From: Akkermansia sp.
GTDB lineage: Bacteria; Verrucomicrobiota; Verrucomicrobiia; Verrucomicrobiales; Akkermansiaceae
DNA length: 64,000 bases
Direction: 5' to 3'
Assembly (NCBI GenBank): GCA_045538105.1
Contig: JAZSQS010000035.1
Location: 4,059 to 68,058, forward strand
Each line of letters begins with the position of its first letter. Within the stretch, counting starts at the first letter, position 1. Position numbers and translations under genes: made by a program. Positions 1 through 62,677 of this stretch are shown piece by piece. The notes below the pieces were generated by a model that was not told the DNA's origin, made no database searches, and saw only the letters and a program-made list of their open reading frames with translations.

Positions 1-2882
1 CGCAAGAAGGAGGTTTCAACGTTACCCACGACTGAATTAACCAGATGCATAGGCTCGGCAAACCAATCAGTATACTGGCCATCGGGCCCTTTTAATCGCC
101 ACAACTTGCCCCCCTTGCCATCAGAGGTATGCTCAAATTTATAGTCAGTCAAAGCAAGGAAGCGGTGCATGATTGGCATATTGGCATTCAATCGGTAACG
201 ATTATCTCCATCATCCACCTGATTCTTACCCGGCAGTTCCGGTTTCCAAACCTTAGGGTCCAAGTGGTCTCCTAATTCTCGTCTCAGGATTTGCTTGTAA
301 GCCTCTTCTGGCGTCATTCCCTGGGTTAGGAAGGTTTGGAAATCCTTGGTATGGGGCAGAATATCCATGAGCGATTCCCCACATGCCCGAAGGCCCAGCA
401 TGATTCGGTAAGCCTCCAGCAATTCAGGCTGACCATTCCAACGCCCGCGGGATGCCTTCCGGTATGCCTTGCCATATGTATCGCGGAAATCCTCAATCTT
501 CACTTTACGGAACCAGCGGGGAGCATAAGCAGCGGAGCGGCGTCTCTCGCGGTACATTTCCTCAATAGAATTATAAAATGTTTCAAAAGCCACCTCGCGA
601 GGTACTCCGGAGGCAGCCCGGTGAATGGCAGAACATAGCTCACTGCATATTCTCTGACGCCGCGCCTCCGTTTTCTGGCGGGCTGCATCAATATTGAAAT
701 ACGAGCCTTTCAGACTATCCAGGGACTCCAGGTTCAGAAGCGCCTGGTAACTCAGATTAATCATTTCTGAAACGCGGTCTGCCATGAGCATCTGTATGGC
801 CTTCTCGCGGTGAGGATTGTAAATTCCATTCAATTTTACCTGTTTAGGCAAAAGGGAAGCTCCGTCTGAGAGCATTTTATGATACATCCCAAAACGTTCC
901 ACCTGCTGCTTTTTATCCTTGACCACGCTACCATTACCTTTCTGATACCATTCATCCATCAACAGGAGATATGGCAGGCTCTTTTCTGCATTCAAAGGCA
1001 TGGACTTGCGCCCGGTCAAGCGCTCTGCGACCTGGAGCATTTCCTCCTGGTTACCCGTATCCCGCACAACTGTCTCAGGGCGGGACAATCCTTCCACGGA
1101 ACTCTTTTTGTTCAGGAAATCCACGCGGGCCCTAGGGTCTTTGAACCCAGCGTGATATTCCGTATTCAACAGCAGGAGAGAACGCATCAGCTCCTCCACA
1201 GCACCGGCTCCACTCCAGCGGCGGCTACTGCAAAGCGCTTCCCGCAACAGTTGGTTCTGCACATGAATATCCGGCTCTTCTATGATGCGGAGGCGGGTTG
1301 GTTCATCCACCCCCCATTCAGATAAACGACCACCGTTATCCAACAACTTGGAAGGAGAGCGGAAATGATGCAAAGCTGCGCGCCCCGCAGCAATCAGGAC
1401 AAAAGGCAGATTCATCGCAGCTTCGCGCATGTTCGCCTCAATGTCTGTAAAATTATTGCCAAAGGTTTCCCAATCAATATTGGAAGCCACCTTATCCACC
1501 CTGGCGGCCAGCTCCTGGGTTCCCAATTCTGCAGCCTGGGCAGCCTTGCCAGCCAGCAACATCTTAGCATTTTCTGCCGTCAGGATACCCAACCCCTTCA
1601 AAGCTGCAAGTGAATAGCCCTTCCAACCGGCGCTTCCTGCACGCATGAACTCATTAATAGTCCGGTTGAGCATCTGCGCGCCAATGCGACTCATGCCTGC
1701 ATAAATGCCTGCCTGCAACGAGCCGCCGAGAATGCCGGCAGCAGTCTGGAGTTCCTGACGCCCCTTTGGCGAACGCCTGCGGGCTTCTGCCACTGCCGCA
1801 CCAGTGCCGGAAAGGGTCAGCAAGCCAAAGCCAGCTCCACCAGAGAAGGCTGCGATAGCTCCCGGTACAGCTCCAGCTGCATCTACGGCCATTTGTTCTG
1901 CCAGATTACTCTCCTCTCCCAGGTCTATGGGGAACAACTCCCCTTGGGCCACGCGGCGTAATTCATCCAGCACCTGCAGGCGCTTATCTGCTGCACTGCT
2001 CAAGTTCCTGAGTGTATCACTTTCCAGGGTTTCACCAGCAGCCCGTGTAAGCGCTGTGGCAATATGCCCAAGCCCTTGCAGGGATGAATGCCCCAAATCC
2101 GCAGCTCCACGCCGCACACTGTGCAGCATGGCTTCGGCCAGATTATCCGGTTTCTCCTCCAATTGGCGCGTTGAATCCAACGAACGAGCAATGGCGTATA
2201 CCCGGGCGCGTTCATCTGCATCCATATCTGCCAGTTCATCCACAGCCCGAACCAAGCCAGGAACTTTCGCAAAGACGGTCGGAGTATAGACGGGATTGGA
2301 CTCCATGGTTTTGATGGCTGACCATGCCTCTGATATGGACTCTGCCAGTGGCATGTATTGCTCACGCAAGGACTCGGCATGTCCCTGCGCCATGTCACTA
2401 ATCTGGAAATCCGCTTCTTCATCTGGCAAATCGGGCATTTCCCCACGGAGAGCTGAAAGATAATGCTCCTTGTACAGACGGCGGGCCTTTTCTGCCATAG
2501 GAGCATCTGCATTCTTTAGCGAGAGAGCCGAATACAGTTCCTTTTCTGAATTCCCCACACCAAACAAGCGGGTCAAATCCCGGCGCAGTTCCGGCCACGC
2601 GCTGCGAACCTGCTCCCGGCTCATATTCTGGTAATCCACCACCCACGAACGGTTAATATTGGTCATGAGTCGGTAGTCCCGCTCCTCTTGCGGCAGCGAT
2701 TCATCCGCTGCACCCGCTTTCTGGCGAAGCGCATCCGGGACAGAACTCAAATCTCCGGTGAGGAGGGTATTCCAGTATTGACCTTTCTCCCATTCCTTAC
2801 CCTGATTCACCTTAGGCAGAGGCTTGAGAGAGTCCAGAGGGAGCGGTTTATCCTGCTTGATTTCAACGGTTTCCGTGTTCAT
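1..2882 (-). CDS. large hypothetical protein, C-terminal end outside window (>960 aa)
   Basis: By my own translation the minus-strand frame is open from ATG 2882 (MNTETVEIKQDKPLPLDSLKPL...) to position 1, about 960 codons with no stop. It is absent from the ORF track only because its stop lies outside the window. The start overlaps the upstream ORF stop by 20 nt. It has a Gly/Ala-rich hydrophobic block (AGAVPGAIAAFSGGAGFGLLTLSGTGAAVA, AGILGGSLQAGIYAG). No NTPase or catalytic motif recognised. Confidence 0.6.
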   Translation of the reverse strand, partial: MNTETVEIKQDKPLPLDSLKPLPKVNQGKEWEKGQYWNTLLTGDLSSVPDALRQKAGAADESLPQEERDYRLMTNINRSWVVDYQNMSREQVRSAWPELRRDLTRLFGVGNSEKELYSALSLKNADAPMAEKARRLYKEHYLSALRGEMPDLPDEEADFQISDMAQGHAESLREQYMPLAESISEAWSAIKTMESNPVYTPTVFAKVPGLVRAVDELADMDADERARVYAIARSLDSTRQLEEKPDNLAEAMLHSVRRGAADLGHSSLQGLGHIATALTRAAGETLESDTLRNLSSAADKRLQVLDELRRVAQGELFPIDLGEESNLAEQMAVDAAGAVPGAIAAFSGGAGFGLLTLSGTGAAVAEARRRSPKGRQELQTAAGILGGSLQAGIYAGMSRIGAQMLNRTINEFMRAGSAGWKGYSLAALKGLGILTAENAKMLLAGKAAQAAELGTQELAARVDKVASNIDWETFGNNFTDIEANMREAAMNLPFVLIAAGRAALHHFRSPSKLLDNGGRLSEWGVDEPTRLRIIEEPDIHVQNQLLREALCSSRRWSGAGAVEELMRSLLLLNTEYHAGFKDPRARVDFLNKKSSVEGLSRPETVVRDTGNQEEMLQVAERLTGRKSMPLNAEKSLPYLLLMDEWYQKGNGSVVKDKKQQVERFGMYHKMLSDGASLLPKQVKLNGIYNPHREKAIQMLMADRVSEMINLSYQALLNLESLDSLKGSYFNIDAARQKTEARRQRICSELCSAIHRAASGVPREVAFETFYNSIEEMYRERRRSAAYAPRWFRKVKIEDFRDTYGKAYRKASRGRWNGQPELLEAYRIMLGLRACGESLMDILPHTKDFQTFLTQGMTPEEAYKQILRRELGDHLDPKVWKPELPGKNQVDDGDNRYRLNANMPIMHRFLALTDYKFEHTSDGKGGKLWRLKGPDGQYTDWFAEPMHLVNSVVGNVETSFL

Positions 2883-4152
2883 TGTTCTCGTTTTGTTCAA
2901 ATTGGAAGCAAAGCCAGTTTTCAGTAGATTGCTGCAAGGAGCTCAGCCATTTTGCAGACTCCTGGGGACCCCCAGCAGCCTGCCGTTCTAGCGATTCCTG
3001 TAACAAACGCCTCAGACTTCCCAAGGATTCAGTATCCCCCGGGCACCCCAAACGCCCCTCGCGGTATAAAGTCCACAACTTCTGGCTTACCCCACCCCGT
3101 TGCAGGGACGGCAGGGTGGCTGTGTCCTTAAGCCGCTGCAAAAGCATGCAACGTTCACGCCCCGGAATAGGGGCAAAAGCTATGTCCACCATCAACGCCC
3201 CGTCCTGACCGTCAGGGCGCTCATCAATACGGCGCATCCAATCACAGGTTTCCGCCATGGTGAGAGGAGTCCGGGGGAGCCGGAGCTCAGCCATCCGATT
3301 CAGGGGAAGCACCCCCGCCTCCACCGCTCGTTCAATTTCTGCCTCAGCGGGTTCCCTTCCCTGCTCCACTGCTGCCGCCAATTGCAATGCGGTACTTTCA
3401 AACAGATTGGAGCGCGTCCGTTCCACCTCACTTTCCAGCTCTCTGCGTTCGGCTTCCCCTCCGGGGCGTTCCTCCGTTCCGTTGTTCCATGCCACAAGCG
3501 CCTCATACGGATTTTGCTGTAAATTCCTCTGCCAGCGGGCATGCAGACTCCGGCTACGGGTATCCTCCAAACGCTGGGTCATTCCTGATTCCGGCACAAA
3601 GACCTCACGGCCCCGCTCTATCCACCGGCACGCTTCATCTGCGTTCCCTTGCCGTACTGCGTTTTCTACCTGCTCCTGCCACAATTGCCGGGAGTGCCGG
3701 ATGCGCTCCAGCTCCAGCCGCTTCCTGCCCTCAAAGGAATAGCGCTCACTATTTTTCTCAGCCATTTGGAGAGCCCGGTTCCGGGCAGTCCCCCTGTATT
3801 GCTCCGCCAATTTCTGAACCCGCGGTGCATAGGCCTGCTGCCAGCTGTAATCCCAGTCACGAACCGGGCTCTCCATCAACTCCTCCGTAGTTTCCCTGGC
3901 AATTTCATCCAGTTGCCTGGCCACATCGGCCTCATCTCCTGTGAATTCCACCCGCTCCAATGCCTGAACCAGGGAAGCAGCCCCCGTTCCTGCATCCGCG
4001 ATTCCCTTTCCCAGAACGCGCCCGCTTCGTCCCCAATCATTTAATGCATTGACTGGCAGATGCACGCCTTGCCGGGGATAAGCCAGCATGCTCCACTCCT
4101 TCATTCGTATTGCCATGCTGCGTAGCATGGCATGCCTTGTTTTCTGGGTCAA
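2863..4152 (-). CDS. hypothetical protein (Arg/Glu-rich, helical-looking)
   Basis: ORF-track 429 aa. The listed start is TTG and the first ATG is at 4128, so the start is uncertain. It lies 46 nt downstream of gpmA and overlaps the next ORF, so it is probably co-transcribed. No motif recognised. Confidence 0.55.
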   Translation of the reverse strand: MTQKTRHAMLRSMAIRMKEWSMLAYPRQGVHLPVNALNDWGRSGRVLGKGIADAGTGAASLVQALERVEFTGDEADVARQLDEIARETTEELMESPVRDWDYSWQQAYAPRVQKLAEQYRGTARNRALQMAEKNSERYSFEGRKRLELERIRHSRQLWQEQVENAVRQGNADEACRWIERGREVFVPESGMTQRLEDTRSRSLHARWQRNLQQNPYEALVAWNNGTEERPGGEAERRELESEVERTRSNLFESTALQLAAAVEQGREPAEAEIERAVEAGVLPLNRMAELRLPRTPLTMAETCDWMRRIDERPDGQDGALMVDIAFAPIPGRERCMLLQRLKDTATLPSLQRGGVSQKLWTLYREGRLGCPGDTESLGSLRRLLQESLERQAAGGPQESAKWLSSLQQSTENWLCFQFEQNENNEHGNR

Positions 4153-4198
4153 TCAGACTCAAGGGGTCGGCACACCGTTCCAACTGGAACCGCATGCT

Positions 4199-4873
4199 TC
4201 ATGGCATCAGGTTCATCTCATCATCAAATACCAGACGTAGAGGCCGTGCAGTCGGTATTTCCAGTTGCTCTACCCCTGTGGGGCTAAGCCCTCTCAAGTG
4301 CATCACCAATGCACGCAAACTATTGCCATGCGCCACCACAAGCAAGGCACCCGTTGCATACAAGCGGGGGCGCATGATTTCCTCCCAACACGCCCGGACC
4401 CGTTTCAATGTATCCTTGAGCGATTCCGTTGGCGGCAACATCTGGGGAGGCAGAGCCGCGTAACGAGCATCCCAACCTGGCAACCGTTCATCTCCGGCAG
4501 GCAAGGGAGGAGGAGGGCAATCATATGCCCTACGCCAACGCTGCACCAACTCCACCCCCATCTCTGCCTCCACCTCAGCTTTATTCCTCCCCTGCAGGAT
4601 TCCATAGTGTTTCTCATTCAACCGCCAGTCCTTGTGAACCGGAACCCATGCACAATCCAGCCCTGCCAGTACGATGTTGAGAGTGTGTATGGCGCGCATC
4701 AACACGGAAGTACACGCCACGCGGCAAACAAACCCACTCTCCCGCAGCCGCTGCCCCGCCAGCTCCGATTCACGCCGACCTCGCACAGAAAGGGGCACAT
4801 CAGCCCACCCTGTAAAACGATTCTCCGCATTCCATTGTGATTCCCCGTGCCGCAACAATACCAGTTCTTTCAT
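4199..4873 (-). CDS. gpmA: 2,3-bisphosphoglycerate-dependent phosphoglycerate mutase
   Basis: LLRHGESQWN catalytic-His motif, RLNEKHYG, and 224 aa length typical of dPGM. Confidence 0.93.
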   Translation of the reverse strand: MKELVLLRHGESQWNAENRFTGWADVPLSVRGRRESELAGQRLRESGFVCRVACTSVLMRAIHTLNIVLAGLDCAWVPVHKDWRLNEKHYGILQGRNKAEVEAEMGVELVQRWRRAYDCPPPPLPAGDERLPGWDARYAALPPQMLPPTESLKDTLKRVRACWEEIMRPRLYATGALLVVAHGNSLRALVMHLRGLSPTGVEQLEIPTARPLRLVFDDEMNLMP

Positions 4874-4904
4874 CAGATAATTGACTTCCCGTTCAACTAC
4901 ATGA

Positions 4905-4932
4905 TTGCAAAACGGGCAGAATATGTTATCAT
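4905..4932 (+). promoter_or_regulatory. sigma70-like promoter TTGCAA-16-TATCAT
   Basis: -35 at 4905-4910 and -10 at 4927-4932. The -10 ends 10 nt before ATG 4943. Confidence 0.45.
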
Positions 4933-4942
4933 CCAGCCAACT

Positions 4943-5374
4943 ATGACCCGCGTGCGCCTTATCTTCTTTCTGTTTCTCCTTAGTCTGGTCTGCAGCCTTG
5001 CGCTGCTCTTACCCGGATGCTTCAAAGACCCCAGGCAGCTTGTGCAAGGCGAATGGCAGGAAATCAACAAACTGGGATACGTAGACGTAACGGATTCAAC
5101 AGCCCGCTGGTCCAGCAGGACATACAAAGGGACCTTCCAGTACTCCTGGGTGCAGTCAGATGATGAGCCCTACACGGTGGAAGTGCGCCGCAATAAGGAA
5201 AAATGGCTGGCGGGCATCACCTTCGAGGATGATGACCACGCTTCTGTTCAATTCTATATCATGGAGAAATTACCTCCTGAAGCCCGCGAGTTCATTCGCC
5301 AGAAAAACCGGGCCAGGAATCGTCCGGAGGACGAGCTCCTCCTGCGTTTCCGCCGCGTAACCAGGGAAAAGTAA
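4943..5374 (+). CDS. small lipoprotein, unknown function
   Basis: ORF 4847-5374 trimmed to the internal ATG giving MTRVRLIFFLFLLSLVCSLALLLPGC (signal peptide plus lipobox). A promoter lies just upstream. Confidence 0.6.
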   Translation: MTRVRLIFFLFLLSLVCSLALLLPGCFKDPRQLVQGEWQEINKLGYVDVTDSTARWSSRTYKGTFQYSWVQSDDEPYTVEVRRNKEKWLAGITFEDDDHASVQFYIMEKLPPEAREFIRQKNRARNRPEDELLLRFRRVTREK

Positions 5375-15621: not shown

Positions 15622-15695
15622 TTGCGGGAGCAGGATTTGAACCTGCGGCCTTCAGGTTATGAGCCTGACGAGCTACCTGGCTGCTCCATCCCGCG
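15622..15695 (-). tRNA. initiator tRNA-fMet (anticodon CAT)
   Basis: 74-nt cloverleaf CGCGGGA-TG-GAGC-AGCCAGGTA-GCTC-G-TCAGG-CTCATAA-CCTGA-AGGCC-GCAGG-TTCAAAT-CCTGC-TCCCGCA-A. C1xA72 mismatch typical of bacterial initiators and near-identity to E. coli tRNA-fMet from memory. No encoded CCA. Confidence 0.9.
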
Positions 15696-24737: not shown

Positions 24738-26177
24738 ATGAACCACAATCTCACCACGGCTGCCGGCATTCCGGTACCCGATAACAACCGCTCACTCACC
24801 GCGGGGCCTCGTGGTCCCATGCTCATGCAGGACACATGGCTCTTCGAAAAGCTCAGCCACCTGAACCGCGAAGTCATTCCGGAGCGCCGCATGCACGCCA
24901 AGGGCTTCGGAGCATTCGGCGTATTCCGCGTCACAAATGATATCACGCGCTACACCTGTGCCGATTTGTTCTCCTCCATTGGCAAGGAAACAGAGGTCTT
25001 TGTGCGCTTCTCCACGGTGGCGGGTGAGCGCGGAGCCGCAGATGCAGAGCGCGATATCCGCGGCTTTGCCGTCAAGTTCTACACCCACCAGGGAAACTGG
25101 GACCTGGTAGGCAACAACACGCCCGTCTTCTTCCTGCGGGACCCGCGCAAATTTGCCGACCTGAACCACGCCATCAAGCGCCACCCCGCCAGCGGACTGC
25201 ACAGCCCCTCTGCCAACTGGGATTTCTGGACCTCCCTGCCTGAAGCCTTCCACCAGGTCACCATCGTGATGAGCGACCGCGGCATCCCGGATGGTTTCCG
25301 GCATATGCACGGATTCGGCAGTCACACCTTCTCGCTCATCAACGCCCGGAACGAGCGCATCTGGTGCAAGTTCCACTGGCGCTGCCAACAGGGCATCCGC
25401 AACCTGACCGATGCCCAGGCTGCCGCACTCATTGCCGCAGACCGTGACAGCTCCGGTTCCGACCTCTACCGAGCCATTGAGCAAGGGCGATTCCCGAAAT
25501 GGACGCTCTGCATCCAGGTCATGACCGACGCAGAGGCCGCCGATTTCCCCTTCAACCCCTTTGATTTGACCAAGGTGTGGCCGCATGGGGATTTTCCGCT
25601 CATCGAGGTGGGTGAAATGGTGCTCAACCGCAATCCGCAAAACTATTTTGCAGAAGTGGAGCAAGCCGCCTTCAACCCCGCGCAGGTGGTGCCGGGTATC
25701 AGCTTCTCCCCGGATAAGATGCTGCAAGGCCGCCTCTTTGCCTATGGGGATGCACAGCGTTACCGCCTGGGGGTGAACCACCACCTCATTCCGGTAAACC
25801 GCCCCCGCTGCCCCTTCCACAGCTTCCACCGCGATGGGCAGATGCGTACAGATGGCAACCTGGGTGGCACCCTCAGCTACGAGCCCAATAGTTACCACGA
25901 ATGGCAGGAACAGCCCCAGTTCACCGAACCTCCCCAGCATATCTGCGGAGACTCCGGCCACTGGGACTATGCCAATGATGATGATGACTACTTCGCCCAG
26001 CCCCGTGCCCTGTTCCTGCTCATGAATGCAGCGCAGCGCCAGGCGCTCTTTGAGAACACCGCACGCGCCATGGCCGACGTGCCGGAGTTCATCCGCCAGC
26101 GTCATCTGGAGCACTGCTTCCGCTGCCATAAGGATTATGGCGAGGGTGTGGCAGCGGCTTTCGCCGCAACGTCCTGA
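24738..26177 (+). CDS. katA: monofunctional haem catalase (small-subunit type)
   Basis: [18 protein letters not shown] (distal His region), [14 protein letters not shown] (proximal Tyr region), 479 aa. Confidence 0.95.
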
Positions 26178-26431
26178 CCGCAGGTCAGGATATCGTCTGC
26201 CCCGCCAGGGGCAGATATCGTCCAATCCGCAGGATTGGATATCGTCCAGCCCCAACGGGGCTGGATTTCGTTTCCGATTTGCAAGGGAGTATTATTTCCC
26301 AAGGATTGGGAGAATATTTGCTATTGATTCACAGGAAACGATATCCAGCCTCCTGCGGAGGCTGGACGATATCCGGCTTGCGCCGGACGATATCTTGCCT
26401 GCGGCAAGACGATATCCTCGCTTCGCTCGGA
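26173..26431. repeat. hairpin-array inverted-repeat element, gene-less copy
   Basis: Left arm has four GC-rich hairpins each followed by ATATCGT (26190, 26215, 26239; ATTTCGT at 26265). A 62-nt core follows. Right arm has ACGATAT (26338, 26366, 26387, 26409) each followed by a hairpin. It fills the whole katA-ispG intergenic space. Confidence 0.85.
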
Positions 26432-26432
26432 C

Positions 26433-28175
26433 TTAAGGCTCAACCCAACGGCCGTGGTCCTTGATAAGCTGCACGAGGTGCTGCACAGCTTCCTCCTGCG
26501 GAATGTTCATGACCACGGGGGTGTGCCCCACATAGAGGTTAATCTTGTTCGGAGCGCCACCTACATAGCCGAAATCGGCATCGCTCATTTCGCCGGGACC
26601 GTTCACGATGCAGCCCATGATGGCAATCTTCACGCCTTTGAGGTGTCCGGTGGCCTCGCGGATGCGGGCAGCAGCTTCCTGGATATTGTAGTGCGTGCGG
26701 CCACAGGACGGGCAGGAAACATACTCAGTCTTGCTCAGGCGCACGCCAGCAGCCTGCAGGATATTGAAGCCCAGGCGGGCAGCCTTGTCGGGGGCGGTCT
26801 CGCGGCGCACAAGCACAGCGTTGCCAATGCCGTCGCAGAGCAGCGAACCGGCATTCACACCGCCGGCCATGGGGGCAGAAAGGGAATCCAGCCCGTTGCA
26901 GAGCGTATCCTTGAGCAGAATGCTGTGGCGGGTCGGAATGACGGCAGCCAGCAGACGGAAGGCCTGCACCACCGGCATGTCGATACCATCCTTCACCGTG
27001 ACCAGCGTTGCGGGAGCCTCGGCCAGGGCAGCAGTGGCGGCGGCATCGCGCGGGTCAAGCTCCACCGGAGCGCAATCCTCATACGAGATTTCCGGCATGA
27101 AATCCTTCATAACCGCAGGGTCAAGCGCCTTGCAGGCAGCTTCCGGCAGCACCACGCGCACCGGCTCATTCCAGCCCAGGCTCACACCGCCGCGGGTGAC
27201 AACCTCGGCCTTGCGCTTGTTGAATTCAAAGGGATTAAAGGCATCCGGCACCTCCACGGCCAGCGGAGCAGCGGGCAGCACCGCACCGGGCTGGTAGGGA
27301 GCAGCCAGTTCAAAACCGGGGGCTATCTCAAACACCGGGTCCTCGGTCAGGGAGACGCGCAGGGTATCGCCAATACCATCGGCCAGCAGGGAGCCCACGC
27401 CGGTGGCGCTCTTGATGCGGGCATCCTCGCCCTCGCCGGCCTCGGTCACACCCAGGTGGATGGGGTAGTTCCAGTCGAGCCCCTCCTCGGCCAGGCGCTT
27501 CACCAGCAGGCGGTAGGCCTGAATCATCACCTTCACATTGGAAGACTTCATGGAGAACACCAGCTGGTGGTAATCCAGCTCGCGGGCAATGCGGGCAAAC
27601 TCAAGCGCACTTTCCACCATGCCATCAGGCGTATCGCCATAGCGGTTCAGAATGCGGTCGGAAAGCGAGCCATGATTAGCTCCCAGGCGCATGGCGCGAC
27701 CATGTTCCTTGCAGAACAGCACCAGCGGCGTAAAGGCCTTACGGATTTTCTCAATTTCCTCTTCGTACTCATAGTCTGTGTAGTCTCGCTCCACAAACTT
27801 CTTCTTATCCACAAAGTTACCGGGATTCACGCGGATTTTCTCCACCCACTTGGCAGCCTCCATGGCAGCATCCGGCTTGAAATGAATATCTGCCACCAAC
27901 GGCACATTGCACCCGGCAGCGTGCAGCTCGCGGGCTATATTTTCCAGGTTAGCGGCATACACCTTGGTCTGCGCGGTCAGGCGGATGATTTCACAACCAG
28001 CCTCGGCCAGCGCCAGCGATTCGCGCACACACCCGGCTGTATCCAGCGTATCGCTGGTCAGCATGGACTGAATACGGATGGGATTGTTACCACCAATCCC
28101 CACGTTTCCCACCATCACCTCGCGGGTGAGGCGGCGCGTATACTGGTACAGACTCGGGCAATGAAGCGTGCTCAT
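26433..28175 (-). CDS. ispG: 4-hydroxy-3-methylbut-2-enyl diphosphate synthase, long form with insert domain
   Basis: N-terminal TIM-barrel segment (VGNVGIGGNNPIRIQSM), C-terminal 4Fe-4S segment (CPSCGRT, GCIVNGPGE), and 580 aa with a central insertion. Confidence 0.92.
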   Translation of the reverse strand: MSTLHCPSLYQYTRRLTREVMVGNVGIGGNNPIRIQSMLTSDTLDTAGCVRESLALAEAGCEIIRLTAQTKVYAANLENIARELHAAGCNVPLVADIHFKPDAAMEAAKWVEKIRVNPGNFVDKKKFVERDYTDYEYEEEIEKIRKAFTPLVLFCKEHGRAMRLGANHGSLSDRILNRYGDTPDGMVESALEFARIARELDYHQLVFSMKSSNVKVMIQAYRLLVKRLAEEGLDWNYPIHLGVTEAGEGEDARIKSATGVGSLLADGIGDTLRVSLTEDPVFEIAPGFELAAPYQPGAVLPAAPLAVEVPDAFNPFEFNKRKAEVVTRGGVSLGWNEPVRVVLPEAACKALDPAVMKDFMPEISYEDCAPVELDPRDAAATAALAEAPATLVTVKDGIDMPVVQAFRLLAAVIPTRHSILLKDTLCNGLDSLSAPMAGGVNAGSLLCDGIGNAVLVRRETAPDKAARLGFNILQAAGVRLSKTEYVSCPSCGRTHYNIQEAAARIREATGHLKGVKIAIMGCIVNGPGEMSDADFGYVGGAPNKINLYVGHTPVVMNIPQEEAVQHLVQLIKDHGRWVEP

Positions 28176-56702: not shown

Positions 56703-56775
56703 TACCCCCGCGCGGACTCGAACCGCGGACAAATTGATTAAGAGTCAACTGCTCTACCAACTGAGCTACGGAGGC
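56703..56775 (-). tRNA. tRNA-Lys (anticodon CTT), copy 1
   Basis: 73-nt cloverleaf GCCTCCG-TA-GCTC-AGTTGGTA-GAGC-A-GTTGA-CTCTTAA-TCAAT-TTGTC-CGCGG-TTCGAGT-CCGCG-CGGGGGT-A. The acceptor stem has G1-U72 and U4-G69 wobbles. Confidence 0.85.
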
Positions 56776-56804
56776 ATTTGCTCACCCGGCTGCTCACAGA
56801 CTGG

Positions 56805-56877
56805 TACCCCCGCGCGGACTCGAACCGCGGACAAATTGATTAAGAGTCAACTGCTCTACCAACTGAGCTACGGAGGC
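56805..56877 (-). tRNA. tRNA-Lys (anticodon CTT), copy 2
   Basis: Identical 73-nt sequence, 29 nt from copy 1. Confidence 0.85.
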
Positions 56878-56923
56878 ACTTTGTCTGTGAGCACCCTGCA
56901 CCCTGTGTTTCTCTTAGGGGAGA

Positions 56924-56995
56924 AGCCGCTGGTCAGATTTGAACTGACGACCCACGCATTACGAATGCGTTGCTCTACCCCTGAGCTACAGCGGC
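56924..56995 (-). tRNA. tRNA-Thr (anticodon CGT)
   Basis: 72-nt cloverleaf GCCGCTG-TA-GCTC-AGGGGTA-GAGC-A-ACGCA-TTCGTAA-TGCGT-GGGTC-GTCAG-TTCAAAT-CTGAC-CAGCGGC-T. Confidence 0.9.
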
Positions 56996-59354: not shown

Positions 59355-60443
59355 ATGCACCTCTACATCCACGTTCCCTTCTGCCACCGCATCTGCCCCT
59401 ACTGTGCCTTTTTCAAGCACACACCGGGCAGCAGTGACATTCGCGGCTACGTGCAAGGCGTTATTAAGGAAGCCCGGCTCCGGCTGCCTGAAGGAAGCAG
59501 CCCGAACACCATTTATTTTGGCGGCGGAACCCCCAGCATGCTCTCCCCCACCCACCTGGAACTCCTTATCACCGGCCTGGGGCAGTGGCTCGACCTCAGC
59601 CATGTGCAGGAATGGAGTTTCGAGAGCAACCCCGCCACCTTTACCGCTGCAAAAGTCCGGCAGTGGCAGCAACTGGGTATCAACCGTGTATCACTCGGCG
59701 TTCAAAGTTTTGATGCAGGCTTGCTGCATCTGCTGGGGCGCGAACACAGCCCGGAAGACGTGGCAGGAAGCATGCAACTCCTGCGGGACGCGGGCATCCC
59801 GCAAATCAACATCGACCTCATGTTCTCCCTGCCCGGGCAAAGTCTGGCACAGTGGGAACACAGCCTCCAGGCTGCCCTGGCGCTGCAACCAGACCATATC
59901 TCCACATACAACCTGACCTACGAGGAAGACACGGCTTTCTTCCAACGCTACGGTGCTACCGCCGGCGATGAAGAAACAGACGTTGCCATGTTCAACCTGG
60001 CAGATGACCTCCTCACTGCTGCTGGCTACCGGCACTATGAAATCTCCAACTACGCCCGCCACGGCTGCGAATCGCTCCACAATCTTGCCTGCTGGCATGG
60101 CGAAGACTACTGCGGACTAGGCCCCGGCGCTGTGGGAACCATGAGCGGCGTCCGCTACTGCAACGCCGGCGATACTGCCGCCTACACGGCCGCCCTGAAA
60201 GCAGGTACCCTGCCACCCGGCACCTCTGAGGAGCTCGACCCTGCCACCCGCCGCACCGAGCTGCTGGGCCTCCTGCTCCGAACCGATGAGGGACTGCCAC
60301 CCGCCATGCTCCGCCCGCAGGATAGTACCTTCATTACCATGCTCCAGCGCGAGCAGCTCGCCACCATTTCCCCCACCGGCCGCCTCATTCTCACCCGCTC
60401 CGGCCGCCTCGTGGCCGATGAAATCGCCGTCGGCCTCATCTGA
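59355..60443 (+). CDS. hemW: radical SAM haem chaperone HemW (HemN-like, oxygen-independent coproporphyrinogen oxidase family)
   Basis: LYIHVPFCHRICPYCAF (CxxxCxxC). 362 aa, without the extra HemN N-terminal elements. Confidence 0.85.
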   Translation: MHLYIHVPFCHRICPYCAFFKHTPGSSDIRGYVQGVIKEARLRLPEGSSPNTIYFGGGTPSMLSPTHLELLITGLGQWLDLSHVQEWSFESNPATFTAAKVRQWQQLGINRVSLGVQSFDAGLLHLLGREHSPEDVAGSMQLLRDAGIPQINIDLMFSLPGQSLAQWEHSLQAALALQPDHISTYNLTYEEDTAFFQRYGATAGDEETDVAMFNLADDLLTAAGYRHYEISNYARHGCESLHNLACWHGEDYCGLGPGAVGTMSGVRYCNAGDTAAYTAALKAGTLPPGTSEELDPATRRTELLGLLLRTDEGLPPAMLRPQDSTFITMLQREQLATISPTGRLILTRSGRLVADEIAVGLI

Positions 60444-60554
60444 CGTCCGCGAGCCCCTGCTCGCGGATATCGTTACTCCCCCGCCTGCGGGGGAGTAATA
60501 TCGTTTTTGTCGACAGGCAAAAATATCGTTCCGGCCGCAGGCCGGAATATCGTT
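60444..60554 (+). repeat. left hairpin-array arm (4 hairpins, each followed by ATATCGT)
   Basis: Hairpins at 60447-60466, 60475-60496, 60506-60521 and 60531-60545. Linkers at 60467, 60498, 60523 and 60547. Confidence 0.9.
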
Positions 60555-60600
60555 TCCTATCAAGTCTTTCAGAAACGAAAACATATCATTGGGAAATCAT

Positions 60601-60629
60601 TTGCCCTCACATGCGAAAACTGATAGAAT
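60601..60629 (+). promoter_or_regulatory. sigma70-like extended -10 promoter TTGCCC-17-(TGa)TAGAAT (leaderless configuration)
   Basis: -35 at 60601-60606 and -10 at 60624-60629 with TG at 60621-60622, 8 nt to ATG 60638. Confidence 0.45.
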
Positions 60630-60637
60630 GCCCAATC

Positions 60638-60979
60638 ATGAAACCGCATCCTTTAGCTGAGCAAAGTCTGGATTTTTCCGTTAATATAGTTCACTTTTGC
60701 GATGGTATTGAACGTTACGCTGTCCTGAAAAATCAATTACTCCGCTCTGCCACCAGCATTGGAGCCAACATTCACGAAGGCATTTATGCAAGCAGCGGTG
60801 GAGATTTTGTAGCGAGATACCAGATTTCGCTAAAGGAATGCCATGAGACTGAATATTGGCTCAAAATCATGGAACGAGCCGGACTTGCACAGCCTGAACA
60901 AATCAGGCAGCTCCTTCAACAATGTGGAAAAATTCGCCGCATGCTGATTGCGTCCATCACCACGGTTAAAGCAGGCTGA
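60638..60979 (+). CDS. four-helix-bundle protein (23S rRNA intervening-sequence protein / Avd family)
   Basis: LLRSATSIGANIHEGIYASSGGDFVARYQISLKECHETEYWLKIM matches the family pattern as I remember it (RSxxSIxxNIxEG ... DFxxxLxIAxGSxxE). ~113 aa. AT-richer than the flanks. Start could instead be 60611. Confidence 0.75.
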   Translation: MKPHPLAEQSLDFSVNIVHFCDGIERYAVLKNQLLRSATSIGANIHEGIYASSGGDFVARYQISLKECHETEYWLKIMERAGLAQPEQIRQLLQQCGKIRRMLIASITTVKAG

Positions 60980-61023
60980 TTTCGTTTCCCAATGCACACT
61001 GATACATATCTGTAAAACAATAT

Positions 61024-61135
61024 AGGAAACGATATTCCGGCCTGTGGCCGGAACGATATTTTTGTCTGTCGCCAAAAACGATATTACTCCCCCGCAGGCG
61101 GGGGAGTAACGATATTCTCGCTCGCGGCGAGAACG
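61024..61135 (-). repeat. right hairpin-array arm (reverse complement of left arm)
   Basis: Linkers ACGATAT at 61029, 61053, 61078 and 61109. Hairpins at 61037-61051, 61061-61076, 61086-61107 (exact reverse complement of 60475-60496) and 61116-61132. Confidence 0.9.
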
Positions 61136-61145
61136 TAAAACGCGC

Positions 61146-61174
61146 TTGCACTCACGCACGGGCTCATGTAGAAT
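61146..61174 (+). promoter_or_regulatory. sigma70-like promoter TTGCAC-17-TAGAAT
   Basis: -35 at 61146-61151 and -10 at 61169-61174, 12 nt to ATG 61187. Confidence 0.5.
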
Positions 61175-61186
61175 GCAGGGTATACC

Positions 61187-62677
61187 ATGCAACGCTTCTT
61201 CCCCATTCTGGCACTTTCCCTCCTCCCGGCCACGGCCCAGCACACTCCCGATGACCACGCCTTTGCGGAGGCTGTCCGGCAATTCCTGCCCGCCCCGGCT
61301 ACTTCCATGCCAGCCCCCAAAGCAGTAGAAATCACCTTCACTCCGGATACCACCCCAGTGGCAGACACCTCACCCGAAGCCCATCCGGAGGCTTATACAC
61401 GCTTCGTTGGCCACCTCAAGGACATTGCCGAGAAGAACCAGTATGATTTCTGCCTTGCCCTGCGCGAGATTCTGGAAGCCACTCAGGATGAATTCGCCGT
61501 CATGCGATGGATGGAAAAAGCAGCCTCAGAGGGAAACACGGCGGCCCTCCAGTTCGTGGGTGACCGCAGGCTTACCCGCGTGGCTCGGGACAAGATTCAA
61601 TCCCCCGAAGTCAAGGAAGCATACGCCATGGTCAGGAAAGCGGCAGATGCCGGGTTTGATGCTGCAAAAATCAACGTCTGCATGTGCATGCAAATGGGCA
61701 TTGGCACCCCAAAGGATGAAGACGCAGCAAAGAAGTACATGATAGAAGCCTGCCGCAACGGCAACTTCATTCCACGCTACAAATGGCTCCAGATGAACGG
61801 ACGTTTGGCCAACTGGGAAGACCGCGAGCGCCCGGAGGTTGCCGCTGAAATCGAACGTGGTAACCACCACGTGCTCTACTATCTCTCCAGCCGAGCCTCA
61901 GCCCCACAGGAGCAGATTGACATGCTACGCCGAGCTGCGGAAAAAGGAAACCCGGAAGCACTCTATGCCCTCTCTGCCCTCAGCTCCCGGAAAGCCCCGA
62001 AAGAAAGTTTCACCCTGCTGAAGGAAGCCGTGCGGCTGCATAGTGCAGATGCTCTCTTTGCCCTGGGCTCCGCCATGACGGATGGAGACCCGAACAGCCC
62101 CGTTCTCCGGGAGGCTGGCGTGCCGCATAATGATGTGGCAGGCAGAGCCATGATTAAACTGGCCGCCATGATGAACAACTCCACCGCCTGTTTCTGGCTG
62201 GGCAGTGTCAATTACCACGGTCAATGCGGCGTAACGGTTAATAAAGAGCGTTCCTTCCAGCACTACGACTACGGTGCCCAGCTTGGCAACCCAAGCTGCG
62301 GCACAGCAGCCGGCCTCATGCTGCTGCGGGGGCTCGGTATTCCGCAAGACACCCGAAAAGGTCTCTATTACCTCAACGCGGCTGCCAACATGGGACTGCC
62401 ACACGCCGTCATCCTGCTCGCTTATGCCCAGCATTCCGGTCTGGGCATGCCGGCTGATTCCAACGCGGCCAGCAAACTCCTGCAGGAGGCTGCCGCCATG
62501 GGGCAGAAGCAGGCCTATGTCTACCTGGCCTATATCACCGCAAAGGGGGGCAGCAAACTCACCCCTGATTCCAAACAAGCTGAACGCTATGTGCGCCTGG
62601 CCTCCCTAGATATGAAGGAGAAGGCCCAGGAAACCTTTGATAAGCTCATGGCAGACGGCTGGAACCCGGAACCCTAA
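61187..62677 (+). CDS. secreted Sel1-repeat protein
   Basis: Signal peptide MQRFFPILALSLLPATAQ. Many Sel1-type repeats (AMRWMEKAASEGNTAALQFVG, AAKKYMIEACRNGN, GLYYLNAAANMGLPHAVILLAYA, ASKLLQEAAAMGQKQAYVYLA). Confidence 0.8.
   Translation: MQRFFPILALSLLPATAQHTPDDHAFAEAVRQFLPAPATSMPAPKAVEITFTPDTTPVADTSPEAHPEAYTRFVGHLKDIAEKNQYDFCLALREILEATQDEFAVMRWMEKAASEGNTAALQFVGDRRLTRVARDKIQSPEVKEAYAMVRKAADAGFDAAKINVCMCMQMGIGTPKDEDAAKKYMIEACRNGNFIPRYKWLQMNGRLANWEDRERPEVAAEIERGNHHVLYYLSSRASAPQEQIDMLRRAAEKGNPEALYALSALSSRKAPKESFTLLKEAVRLHSADALFALGSAMTDGDPNSPVLREAGVPHNDVAGRAMIKLAAMMNNSTACFWLGSVNYHGQCGVTVNKERSFQHYDYGAQLGNPSCGTAAGLMLLRGLGIPQDTRKGLYYLNAAANMGLPHAVILLAYAQHSGLGMPADSNAASKLLQEAAAMGQKQAYVYLAYITAKGGSKLTPDSKQAERYVRLASLDMKEKAQETFDKLMADGWNPEP

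Follow-up and report, generated by a model that had tools for sequence, protein, structure and literature searches.

A four-helix-bundle gene between inverted hairpin arrays of Gut-1-like design in Akkermansia: a putative intervening-sequence-like cassette outside rRNA

What kind of element places a gene of the four-helix-bundle (4HB, or S23p) family between two mirror-image rows of hairpins, away from any rRNA gene, and do the protein and the hairpins belong together? The question is raised by a cassette which lies between hemW and a Sel1-repeat gene in a 64,000-nucleotide stretch of Akkermansia sp. DNA (contig JAZSQS010000035.1; this whole stretch is hereafter called the window). The S23p/4HB family has been known inside rRNA intervening sequences (IVSs) since the 1990s and its structures have been solved, and Avd, the accessory protein of diversity-generating retroelements (DGRs), belongs to the same Pfam family (PF05635) and binds nucleic acid; we know of no function for the family outside DGR Avd. 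We compared the window with loci and contigs from genome and metagenome collections, which carry L-number labels below. The answer has a descriptive core, namely a repeat family, its Gut-1-like design, its association with 4HB genes and an inversion, which appears much more secure from the sequences than the interaction of protein and repeats, which is argued from association.

All of the mirror-image hairpin arms and linkers that the original prediction had placed around the 4HB gene are present (Table 1). Each arm is a repeat unit with the plan (CGT-hairpin-ATAT) x4, followed by a fifth hairpin (TTCCnAT, about 30 nt, ATnGGGAA), which appears inside each arm in the RNA fold as TTCCTAT...ATTGGGAA. 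The linker ATATCGT was observed 22 times in the window with 2.7 expected (none of 100 shuffles reached 22), and the spaced pair ATATCGT-N12-26-ATATCGT was observed 11 times with 0.00 expected; seven isolated ATATCGT sites elsewhere in the window are located in ordinary coding sequence, without hairpins. The longest inverted repeat joins 60462-60573 with 61009-61120 (112 nt, 91% complementary). Module 2 of one arm is the exact reverse complement of its counterpart, modules 3 and 4 are off by 1-2 nt, and the outermost hairpins are unlike in sequence, each of them still folding. As RNA, the left arm is predicted to form five hairpins (-72.9 kcal/mol, z -7.7), as is the right arm alone (z -5.2), and in a transcript across both arms a predicted arm-arm duplex of about 95 bp (-333 kcal/mol, z -25) would replace the local hairpins.

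The enclosed open reading frame (ORF) had been assigned in the original prediction to the 4HB/23S-IVS-protein family, and the profile searches agree: it matches PF05635 (E 2.9e-22, 79.4 bits, cutoff 33.8, residues 9-104), TIGR02436 (E 5.5e-27, 94.1 bits, cutoff 24) and, as a sequence match, the solved structure PDB 2RLD (E 1.2e-18), an entry of 5 chains. Previous studies reported that the X. campestris S23p is a homopentamer and that S23p proteins are homopentameric four-helix bundles forming toroids (PMC4990558). Homologues of the Akkermansia clade are 70-97% identical to the window protein. The promoter proposed for this gene was located as predicted, its pattern (TTGCC-17/18-TAnnAT-7..10-ATG) is kept in 8 homologous Akkermansia cassettes, and in all cassettes compared the gene, together with its promoter placed directly behind hp5, occupies precisely the space that the unit ends leave. 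Because the -10 element stands just 7-10 nt before the ATG, these sequences imply a nearly leaderless 4HB mRNA, which would end in the right-hand array. The further claim that rRNA, transposase and reverse transcriptase are missing also held: Rfam at gathering scores found no rRNA in the 64-kb window, the matches being four tRNAs only, and no transposase or reverse transcriptase was found among the neighbours scanned with Pfam (NagB-like, hemW, Sel1). An exact-protein look-up returned no record for either the 113-aa or the 122-aa form of the window ORF, and the defence-system and phage-family libraries gave no match. A second, very distant 4HB homologue (31% identity) was seen on an Akkermansia contig (L004, 871-1194), far from the ATATCGT arrays of that contig, and Akkermansia may carry more than one 4HB lineage.

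When scanning one genome per species for the linker pattern, we found at least 118 loci. Among the matches listed, loci with palindromic spacers are nearly all labelled Akkermansia, Akkermansiaceae or Verrucomicrobiales, the three exceptions being labelled Clostridia (L017, L044, L078); these three are true ATATCGT/GCGATAT hairpin arrays, and L078 matches the family of L210, a locus described below. Pattern matches outside Verrucomicrobia were, among those listed, mostly unrelated tandem repeats. Four arrangements were seen among the units, which stand singly, in direct tandem blocks of 2-4 units (L058, L111, L093, L134), in convergent pairs without an ORF (the second element of the window, termed element B, L004, L108), and in convergent pairs around a 4HB gene (the hemW element, L012, L040, L087, L119, L134). 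The linker-plus-variable-hairpin design proposed in the original prediction is real, with 358 of 363 stem positions Watson-Crick paired in 58 distinct inter-linker segments, compared with 33% after shuffling; a MAFFT alignment of the units anchors the linkers and not the stems, and the pairing was hence counted directly. Across 22 aligned units the linkers do not vary, and double (compensatory) changes are seen at 11 of the 18 consensus pairs. Structure and the 7-nt linker are retained throughout the family, the stem sequences being different from one subfamily to another.

Element B illustrates this. Its two units overlap at a common hairpin (TCCCAA-GGA-TTGGGA), the stems are unlike between its arms and the linkers identical, and its first hairpin overlaps the stop codon of the catalase gene. 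The right arm is nearly identical to arms adjoining other genes in other species (L040, L012, L119), and the arm subfamily at the ispG 3' end in the window (CCGAGC.. / CTTGCC-GCA-GGCAAG / CCGGC-GCA-GCCGG / CCAGCCTCC-GCA-GGAGGCTGG) is located also at TM2, DJ-1 and further 3' ends in other species. Such near-identical arms beside different genes indicate dispersal rather than evolution in place.

Table 1. Coordinates of the hemW cassette, its neighbours and element B in the window (hp, hairpin)
Feature	Position	Strand	Details
Whole cassette, 692 bp			between hemW and Sel1 gene; two inverted ~155-nt units plus 461-bp core
Left repeat unit	60444..60598	+	ATATCGT orientation; starts right after hemW stop
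Left unit, start and hairpins			CGT 60444-60446; hp1 60447-60466; hp2 60474-60497; hp3 60505-60522; hp4 60530-60546
Left unit, linkers ATATCGT	60467-60473; 60498-60504; 60523-60529; 60547-60553	+
Left unit, hp5		+	TTCCTAT (60554-60560) ... CATTGGGAAA (60587-60596)
Invertible core	60561..61021	.	all between TTCCTAT and ATAGGAA: hp5 loops, promoter, 4HB ORF
4HB promoter	60601..60629	+	TTGCCC-17-TGaTAGAAT; ends 8 nt before ATG
4HB gene	60638..60979	+	113 aa; PF05635 / TIGR02436, S23p family; profile matches
Right repeat unit	60982..61135	-	ATATCGT on - strand; ACGATAT (Gut-1 orientation) on +
Right unit, hp5			TTTCCCAATG (60985-60994) ... ATAGGAA (61022-61028)
Right unit, linkers ACGATAT on +	61029-61035; 61053-61059; 61078-61084; 61109-61115
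Right unit, hairpins and end			hp4' 61036-61052; hp3' 61060-61077; hp2' 61085-61108; hp1' 61116-61132; ACG 61133-61135
hemW, upstream neighbour	59355..60443	+	TIGR00539 E 1e-78; stop TGA 60441-60443 abuts first base of the element
Sel1-repeat protein, downstream neighbour	61187..62677	+
Element B, no ORF	26170..26432	.	two convergent units, 4 + 4 linker/hairpin modules
Element B, setting			fills gap between convergent catalase (TGA 26175-26177) and ispG (stop 26433-26435)
Element B, linkers			+ : 26190, 26215, 26239, 26265 (ATTTCGT); - : 26338, 26366, 26387, 26409

The original prediction held this design to be undescribed, which is not so: Gut-1 (Rfam RF01706; Weinberg et al. 2010, PMC2864571) has exactly such a design. 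Gut-1 was presented there as a covarying orphan small RNA (sRNA) candidate of the human gut, known from metagenomes alone, and the main text and the Gut-1 supplement entries of that paper give no gene association, inverted-pair layout or function. In the open-access literature we found no later work on Gut-1, and we found no literature linking the 4HB gene family (TIGR02436, PF05635) to hairpin arrays. The Gut-1 model (UGAAAU-hp-GUGAAAU-hp-GUGAAAU-hp-UGAAAU, hp being a hairpin) and the Akkermansia arrays both consist of at least three adjacent variable-stem hairpins joined and flanked by an invariant linker of about 7 nt, and both are found in gut bacteria. They differ in the linker (GUGAAAU in Gut-1, ACGAUAU/AUAUCGU in Akkermansia), in the number of hairpins (three, as opposed to four plus a long-loop fifth) and in the loops (cUUCGg, as opposed to GCA/UGC, mostly UGC on the Gut-1 strand). 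Arrays beside homologous 4HB genes reach 64-77 bits with the Gut-1 model, for which the gathering score is 50, and Akkermansia arrays stay under it (L058 38.4 bits, L111 27.6 bits); one Akkermansia array, with 38 bits, aligns with Gut-1 end to end, ACGAUAU replacing GUGAAAU. No Gut-1 match was obtained in 60300-61300 even at E<=10, nor in the whole window at the gathering score, and the element gave no other relevant weak Rfam match. Judged by these alignments, the Akkermansia arrays are a sub-threshold variant of the Gut-1 design.

Moreover, the coupling with 4HB genes extends beyond Akkermansia. 4HB homologues 53-58% identical to the window protein, in Clostridia-like contexts, have arrays before and sometimes after the gene, with the linkers GTGAAAT/ATTTCAC. 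Strict arrays, defined as at least 3 perfect hairpins 3-11 nt apart, were present within 400 nt of the ORF in 41 of 80 homologous 4HB loci from metagenomes, and their density per kb was 0.95 near the 4HB ORF, 0.065 farther out in these loci and 0.02 in unrelated loci totalling 697 kb, an enrichment of about 15-44x over background. The linkers differ by lineage (GTGAAAT/ATTTCAC, TGAAT, CCTTCAC, ATATCGC, ATATCAT), a loose WTCR core being common to them by eye, and L210 has the layout of the window exactly, (hp-ATATCGC)x4, ORF, (GCGATAT-hp)x4. The idea of a protein-repeat pair has thereby gained strong associative support across phyla, and the systematic coupling of 4HB genes with hairpin arrays across phyla appears to be new, as does an invertible, amplifiable, non-rRNA cassette in Akkermansia.

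Several features of these relatives are recorded here for themselves. In Firmicutes-like contigs (L124-L130, L138, L142, L150, L032) the elements are located directly downstream of tRNA genes or clusters (Gly-Arg-His; Val-Asp-Phe-Gly-Cys; Arg), past the tRNA terminator, and one identical protein (P0109) has at least 4 different outer flanks in such contigs. Unlike these, the four tRNA genes of the window (- strand, 56703-56995 and 15622-15695, three clustered and one separate) have no adjoining hairpin arrays. Arrays with TGAAT/ATTCA linkers flank the 4HB gene of L199 on both sides (1250-1480, 2040-2430) and are very long, at 9 and over 12 hairpins. In the Gut-1 arrays of L126 (1305-1400) and L130 (1262-1350), the 5' half of the first hairpin has two possible partners, a local one and a distal segment past the last hairpin (e.g. 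GAAATAAATCCC ... GGGATTTATTTC), one of the two folds closing the whole array, and this outer stem is absent from the Rfam Gut-1 model. The 4HB gene of L067 (5450-6300, Ignavibacteria) has AT-rich repeats on both sides with the palindromic word AATTACGAATT and interspersed ACGATAT, which may be a further, hairpin-poor variant of the arrangement.

Within Akkermansia, the 4HB cassette is found at at least 5 different loci (hemW/Sel1; TM2/DJ-1; 447-aa/DJ-1; LpxI-like/mnmA; beside an AAA_14/DUF4143 gene), and copies with and without the ORF, which the original prediction had named as its test of mobility, were found at different loci. At the orthologous hemW 3' end there is a solo unit in L132 and a decayed unit in L133; in the latter (3590-4980) the decayed unit after hemW keeps hp1 and a linker ATATCGC and is followed by short GTGAAA/ATGAAA-like repeats and a phage-integrase gene, which replace the 4HB gene and Sel1. 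In another Akkermansia species the hemW/Sel1 locus has tandem units before the gene and 2 inverted units after it, and the four (L134) and three (L135) tandem units upstream of the 4HB gene in two samples are a case of copy-number variation. In L134 (3586-4960) the final ~30 nt of the ORF, stop codon included, recur in decayed form in each tandem unit, and these ORF-end remnants indicate that the units derive from "ORF end + downstream array". The closest database homologues of the hemW of the window are just 85% identical, its own entry aside, which points to an Akkermansia-like source species with scant representation among public genomes.

The sequence comparisons also show inversion of the core with respect to the arms. 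In L121 and L122, which come from independent samples and are 98-99% identical to the window, flanks and arms are colinear with it and the core (60561-61021) runs the opposite way. Arm-specific variants stay with the flanks in L121, which places the crossover within the innermost ~21 nt, after ...ATATCGT TTCCTAT, and a second inversion with the same breakpoint was found between L040 and L012, two species, relative to their common DJ-1 flank. An assembly error is an unlikely cause of the L121/L122 inversion, because the longest exact inverted stretch of the arms is 43 nt, L121 is a MEGAHIT contig whose name (k141) implies 141 as the largest k, and two assemblers agree. Taken together, inversion and copy-number change suggest that rearrangement is ongoing. 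The original prediction had further pointed to ACGT as a possible target-site duplication; each unit of the family starts with (A/C)(C/A)GT, which is half of the linker, and ACGT itself is palindromic, so that it is not evidence of duplication. A phage origin was rejected, with no Akkermansia-type arrays on viral contigs among the first 120 pattern matches and just 11 viral 4HB loci.

We propose that the cassette is an IVS-like selfish element located outside rRNA and that its 4HB protein likely has the hairpin arrays as its nucleic-acid partner, and we give this combined model about an even chance. The cassette would be the non-rRNA counterpart of the ORF-containing 23S rRNA IVS, selfish and insulated. 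An arm, as RNA or as transient single-stranded DNA, would form a row of hairpins, and the arms might stop or process flanking transcription; in a read-through transcript the two arms could pair into the ~95-bp duplex and, by analogy with IVSs, become a substrate of RNase III. The 4HB protein would be the probable trans-acting reader of the repeated linker/hairpin modules, the most plausible one because the family forms homopentameric toroids and its Avd relative binds nucleic acid. Arrays without an ORF would be non-autonomous relatives of the 4HB cassette, and inversion, tandem amplification and spread would most likely come from recombination or template switching at the palindromic modules. 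Further, a wider form of the model can be offered only tentatively, and we consider it doubtful: PF05635 4HB proteins would be dedicated trans-acting partners of Gut-1-type arrays across phyla, one pentamer reading a row of modules as RNA or single-stranded DNA, and gene and arrays would form an unrecognised class of selfish cassettes, with rRNA IVSs as a special case and the ORF-less arrays (Gut-1 "sRNAs", Akkermansia intergenic arrays) as its non-autonomous members.

Several points weigh against this proposal. Template-switch mutation is able to preserve perfect palindromes with no selection on RNA. Most arrays have no 4HB gene nearby, and about half of the 80 4HB loci have no strict array, many of these having truncated flanks or perhaps imperfect stems. 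Linkers ATATCGT/ATATCGC occur also with distantly related 4HB proteins (about 45% identical), so the linker type does not simply track the protein clade, and the 4HB protein is merely mildly basic by residue count. No truly empty site and no insertion junction was recovered among the loci compared, and mobility is thus read from the distribution of copies. Indications of the functional strand conflict: the ATATCGT strand is favoured by the loop bias (GCA 17 vs TGC 1 among the 58 distinct inter-linker segments) and by the location of units directly behind stop codons, the opposite one by the Rfam Gut-1 model and by the ORF-end remnants that tandem units carry, and the G-U wobble counts (3 vs 1) are too low for strand assignment.

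The alternative that survives best is that the modules are DNA repeats similar to repetitive extragenic palindromic (REP) sequences, bacterial interspersed mosaic elements (BIMEs) or miniature inverted-repeat transposable elements (MITEs), serving as single-stranded DNA sites for an unlinked transposase of HUH/Y1 or other type, with the 4HB gene as captured cargo. The copies are extragenic, clustered and of alternating orientation, those without an ORF outnumber those with one, and C-GNA-G triloops, which are very stable in single-stranded DNA, dominate one strand (GAA 4 and GGA 3 besides the 17 GCA). Contigs often end at arrays (L132, L136, L348-350), as multi-copy DNA repeats would cause, and a 113-aa helical bundle has no known DNA-cleavage catalytic motif. 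However, REPs conserve the palindrome sequence and a GTAG-type tetranucleotide while their spacers vary, and here the linker is conserved and the stems vary; no transposase stands among the scanned neighbours; and passive cargo would hardly recur beside arrays across phyla with different linkers, or be fitted with its promoter so exactly between the unit ends. We consider this explanation unlikely, though it retains appreciable weight.

A less probable explanation, which we rate as improbable, is that the arrays are ordinary gene-end structures, i.e. stacked terminators or stabilisers of 3' untranslated regions, bidirectional between convergent genes, which insulate the 4HB gene and whose linker has no specific reader. 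In more than 10 independent cases, indeed, a gene points into a unit whose first base is at, or no more than a few nt from, that gene's stop codon, the gap between two convergent genes is filled exactly by element B, the palindromic modules fold on either strand, and some modules are terminator-like (a hairpin, then AUAUCGUUUUUG). Most modules nevertheless have no U-tract, and some units (block 1 of L058; the right arm, which precedes Sel1) are oriented away from any gene. Plain terminators fail to account for a 7-nt linker invariant across species while the stems turn over, for the dispersal of near-identical arms to unrelated places in different species, or for the enrichment of arrays beside 4HB genes, and the tandem blocks of 3-4 units, which vary in copy number, speak against them too.

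Slightly more improbable again is a programmed inverton, in which the arms would be the sites of a site-specific invertase and each flip of the core would turn the 4HB promoter round with respect to Sel1/hemW (phase variation). The two orientations in 98-99% identical sequences from different samples fit this, as do the second inversion between species and the breakpoints, both just inside the innermost linker, with the L121 crossover in the innermost ~21 nt and not in the longest identical 43 nt. Against it, inverted repeats of 112 nt can invert without a dedicated enzyme, no recombinase gene was found among the scanned neighbours, and in another species the TM2/DJ-1 locus has a single orientation in 11 of 11 contigs. 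Inspection by eye also suggests a separate Sel1 promoter beyond the element (TTGCAC-17-TAGAAT, ~61146-61174; absent from the promoter scan list). Published Akkermansia invertons have repeats of ~17 nt and cores of ~160 bp (PMC11892184), unlike the window, and the searched supplements of that paper give neither Akkermansia coordinates nor the linker. Finally, a DGR remnant with the ORF as its Avd, suggested by the common Pfam family, is very improbable and effectively refuted for the window locus, which has no reverse transcriptase among the scanned neighbours and no template/variable repeat pair or long direct repeat pair around the ORF, just inverted arms and short linkers, and the same cassette is without reverse transcriptase at all other loci examined.

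If the IVS-like model is true, two orphans, the Gut-1 motif of 2010 and the S23p/4HB family, would be tied together, and the 4HB protein would have a concrete candidate partner, a defined 7-nt linker flanked by any hairpin. Akkermansia, cultivable and medically relevant, would offer a natural non-rRNA model of an IVS-like cassette. The repeats also matter in that they break metagenomic assemblies and that many genes have them at the 3' end, where an influence on termination or mRNA stability is conceivable.

Compared with known systems, the cassette resembles gut invertons in having a promoter-bearing segment between inverted repeats and both orientations in natural populations, but its repeats are much longer and structured, a whole gene is carried and no recombinase is among the scanned neighbours. 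Inverted repeats are also common to MITEs and insertion sequences, whose internal gene is a transposase, whereas here it is a 4HB gene; the inverted pairs without an ORF in Akkermansia resemble MITEs and REPINs (paired, inverted REPs). With REP/BIME and Correia-type repeats the arrays have in common short palindromic modules of alternating orientation, multi-copy and intergenic, often between convergent genes, but the rule of conservation is reversed, the stems varying between modules and subfamilies and the flanking linker being conserved. The full-length Akkermansia form, unlike REP/BIME, has a central 4HB gene that does not look enzymatic, and neither a transposase nor a REP-associated tyrosine transposase (RAYT) among the scanned neighbours. 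The PF05635 family is discussed in PMC10053308.

The ORF-containing IVSs of 23S rRNA (Coxiella, Leptospira) have, like the cassette, terminal inverted repeats, an enclosed S23p/PF05635 gene and a long predicted stem. Previous studies reported that IVS terminal inverted repeats are cut by RNase III, that IVSs are regarded as selfish and were proposed to be mobile, and that the Coxiella IVS has copy-number-variable heptamer repeats just upstream of its ORF (PMC4990558). IVSs are located in 23S rRNA, whereas the window element is located between protein-coding genes, and a simple 28-bp stem there contrasts with 112-nt arms of local hairpins here. The Coxiella ORF is decaying and probably unexpressed, whereas the window ORF is well conserved and has its own conserved promoter. 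Unlike an IVS, moreover, the Akkermansia element has an invertible core and arms that also exist as free-standing repeats in the genus.

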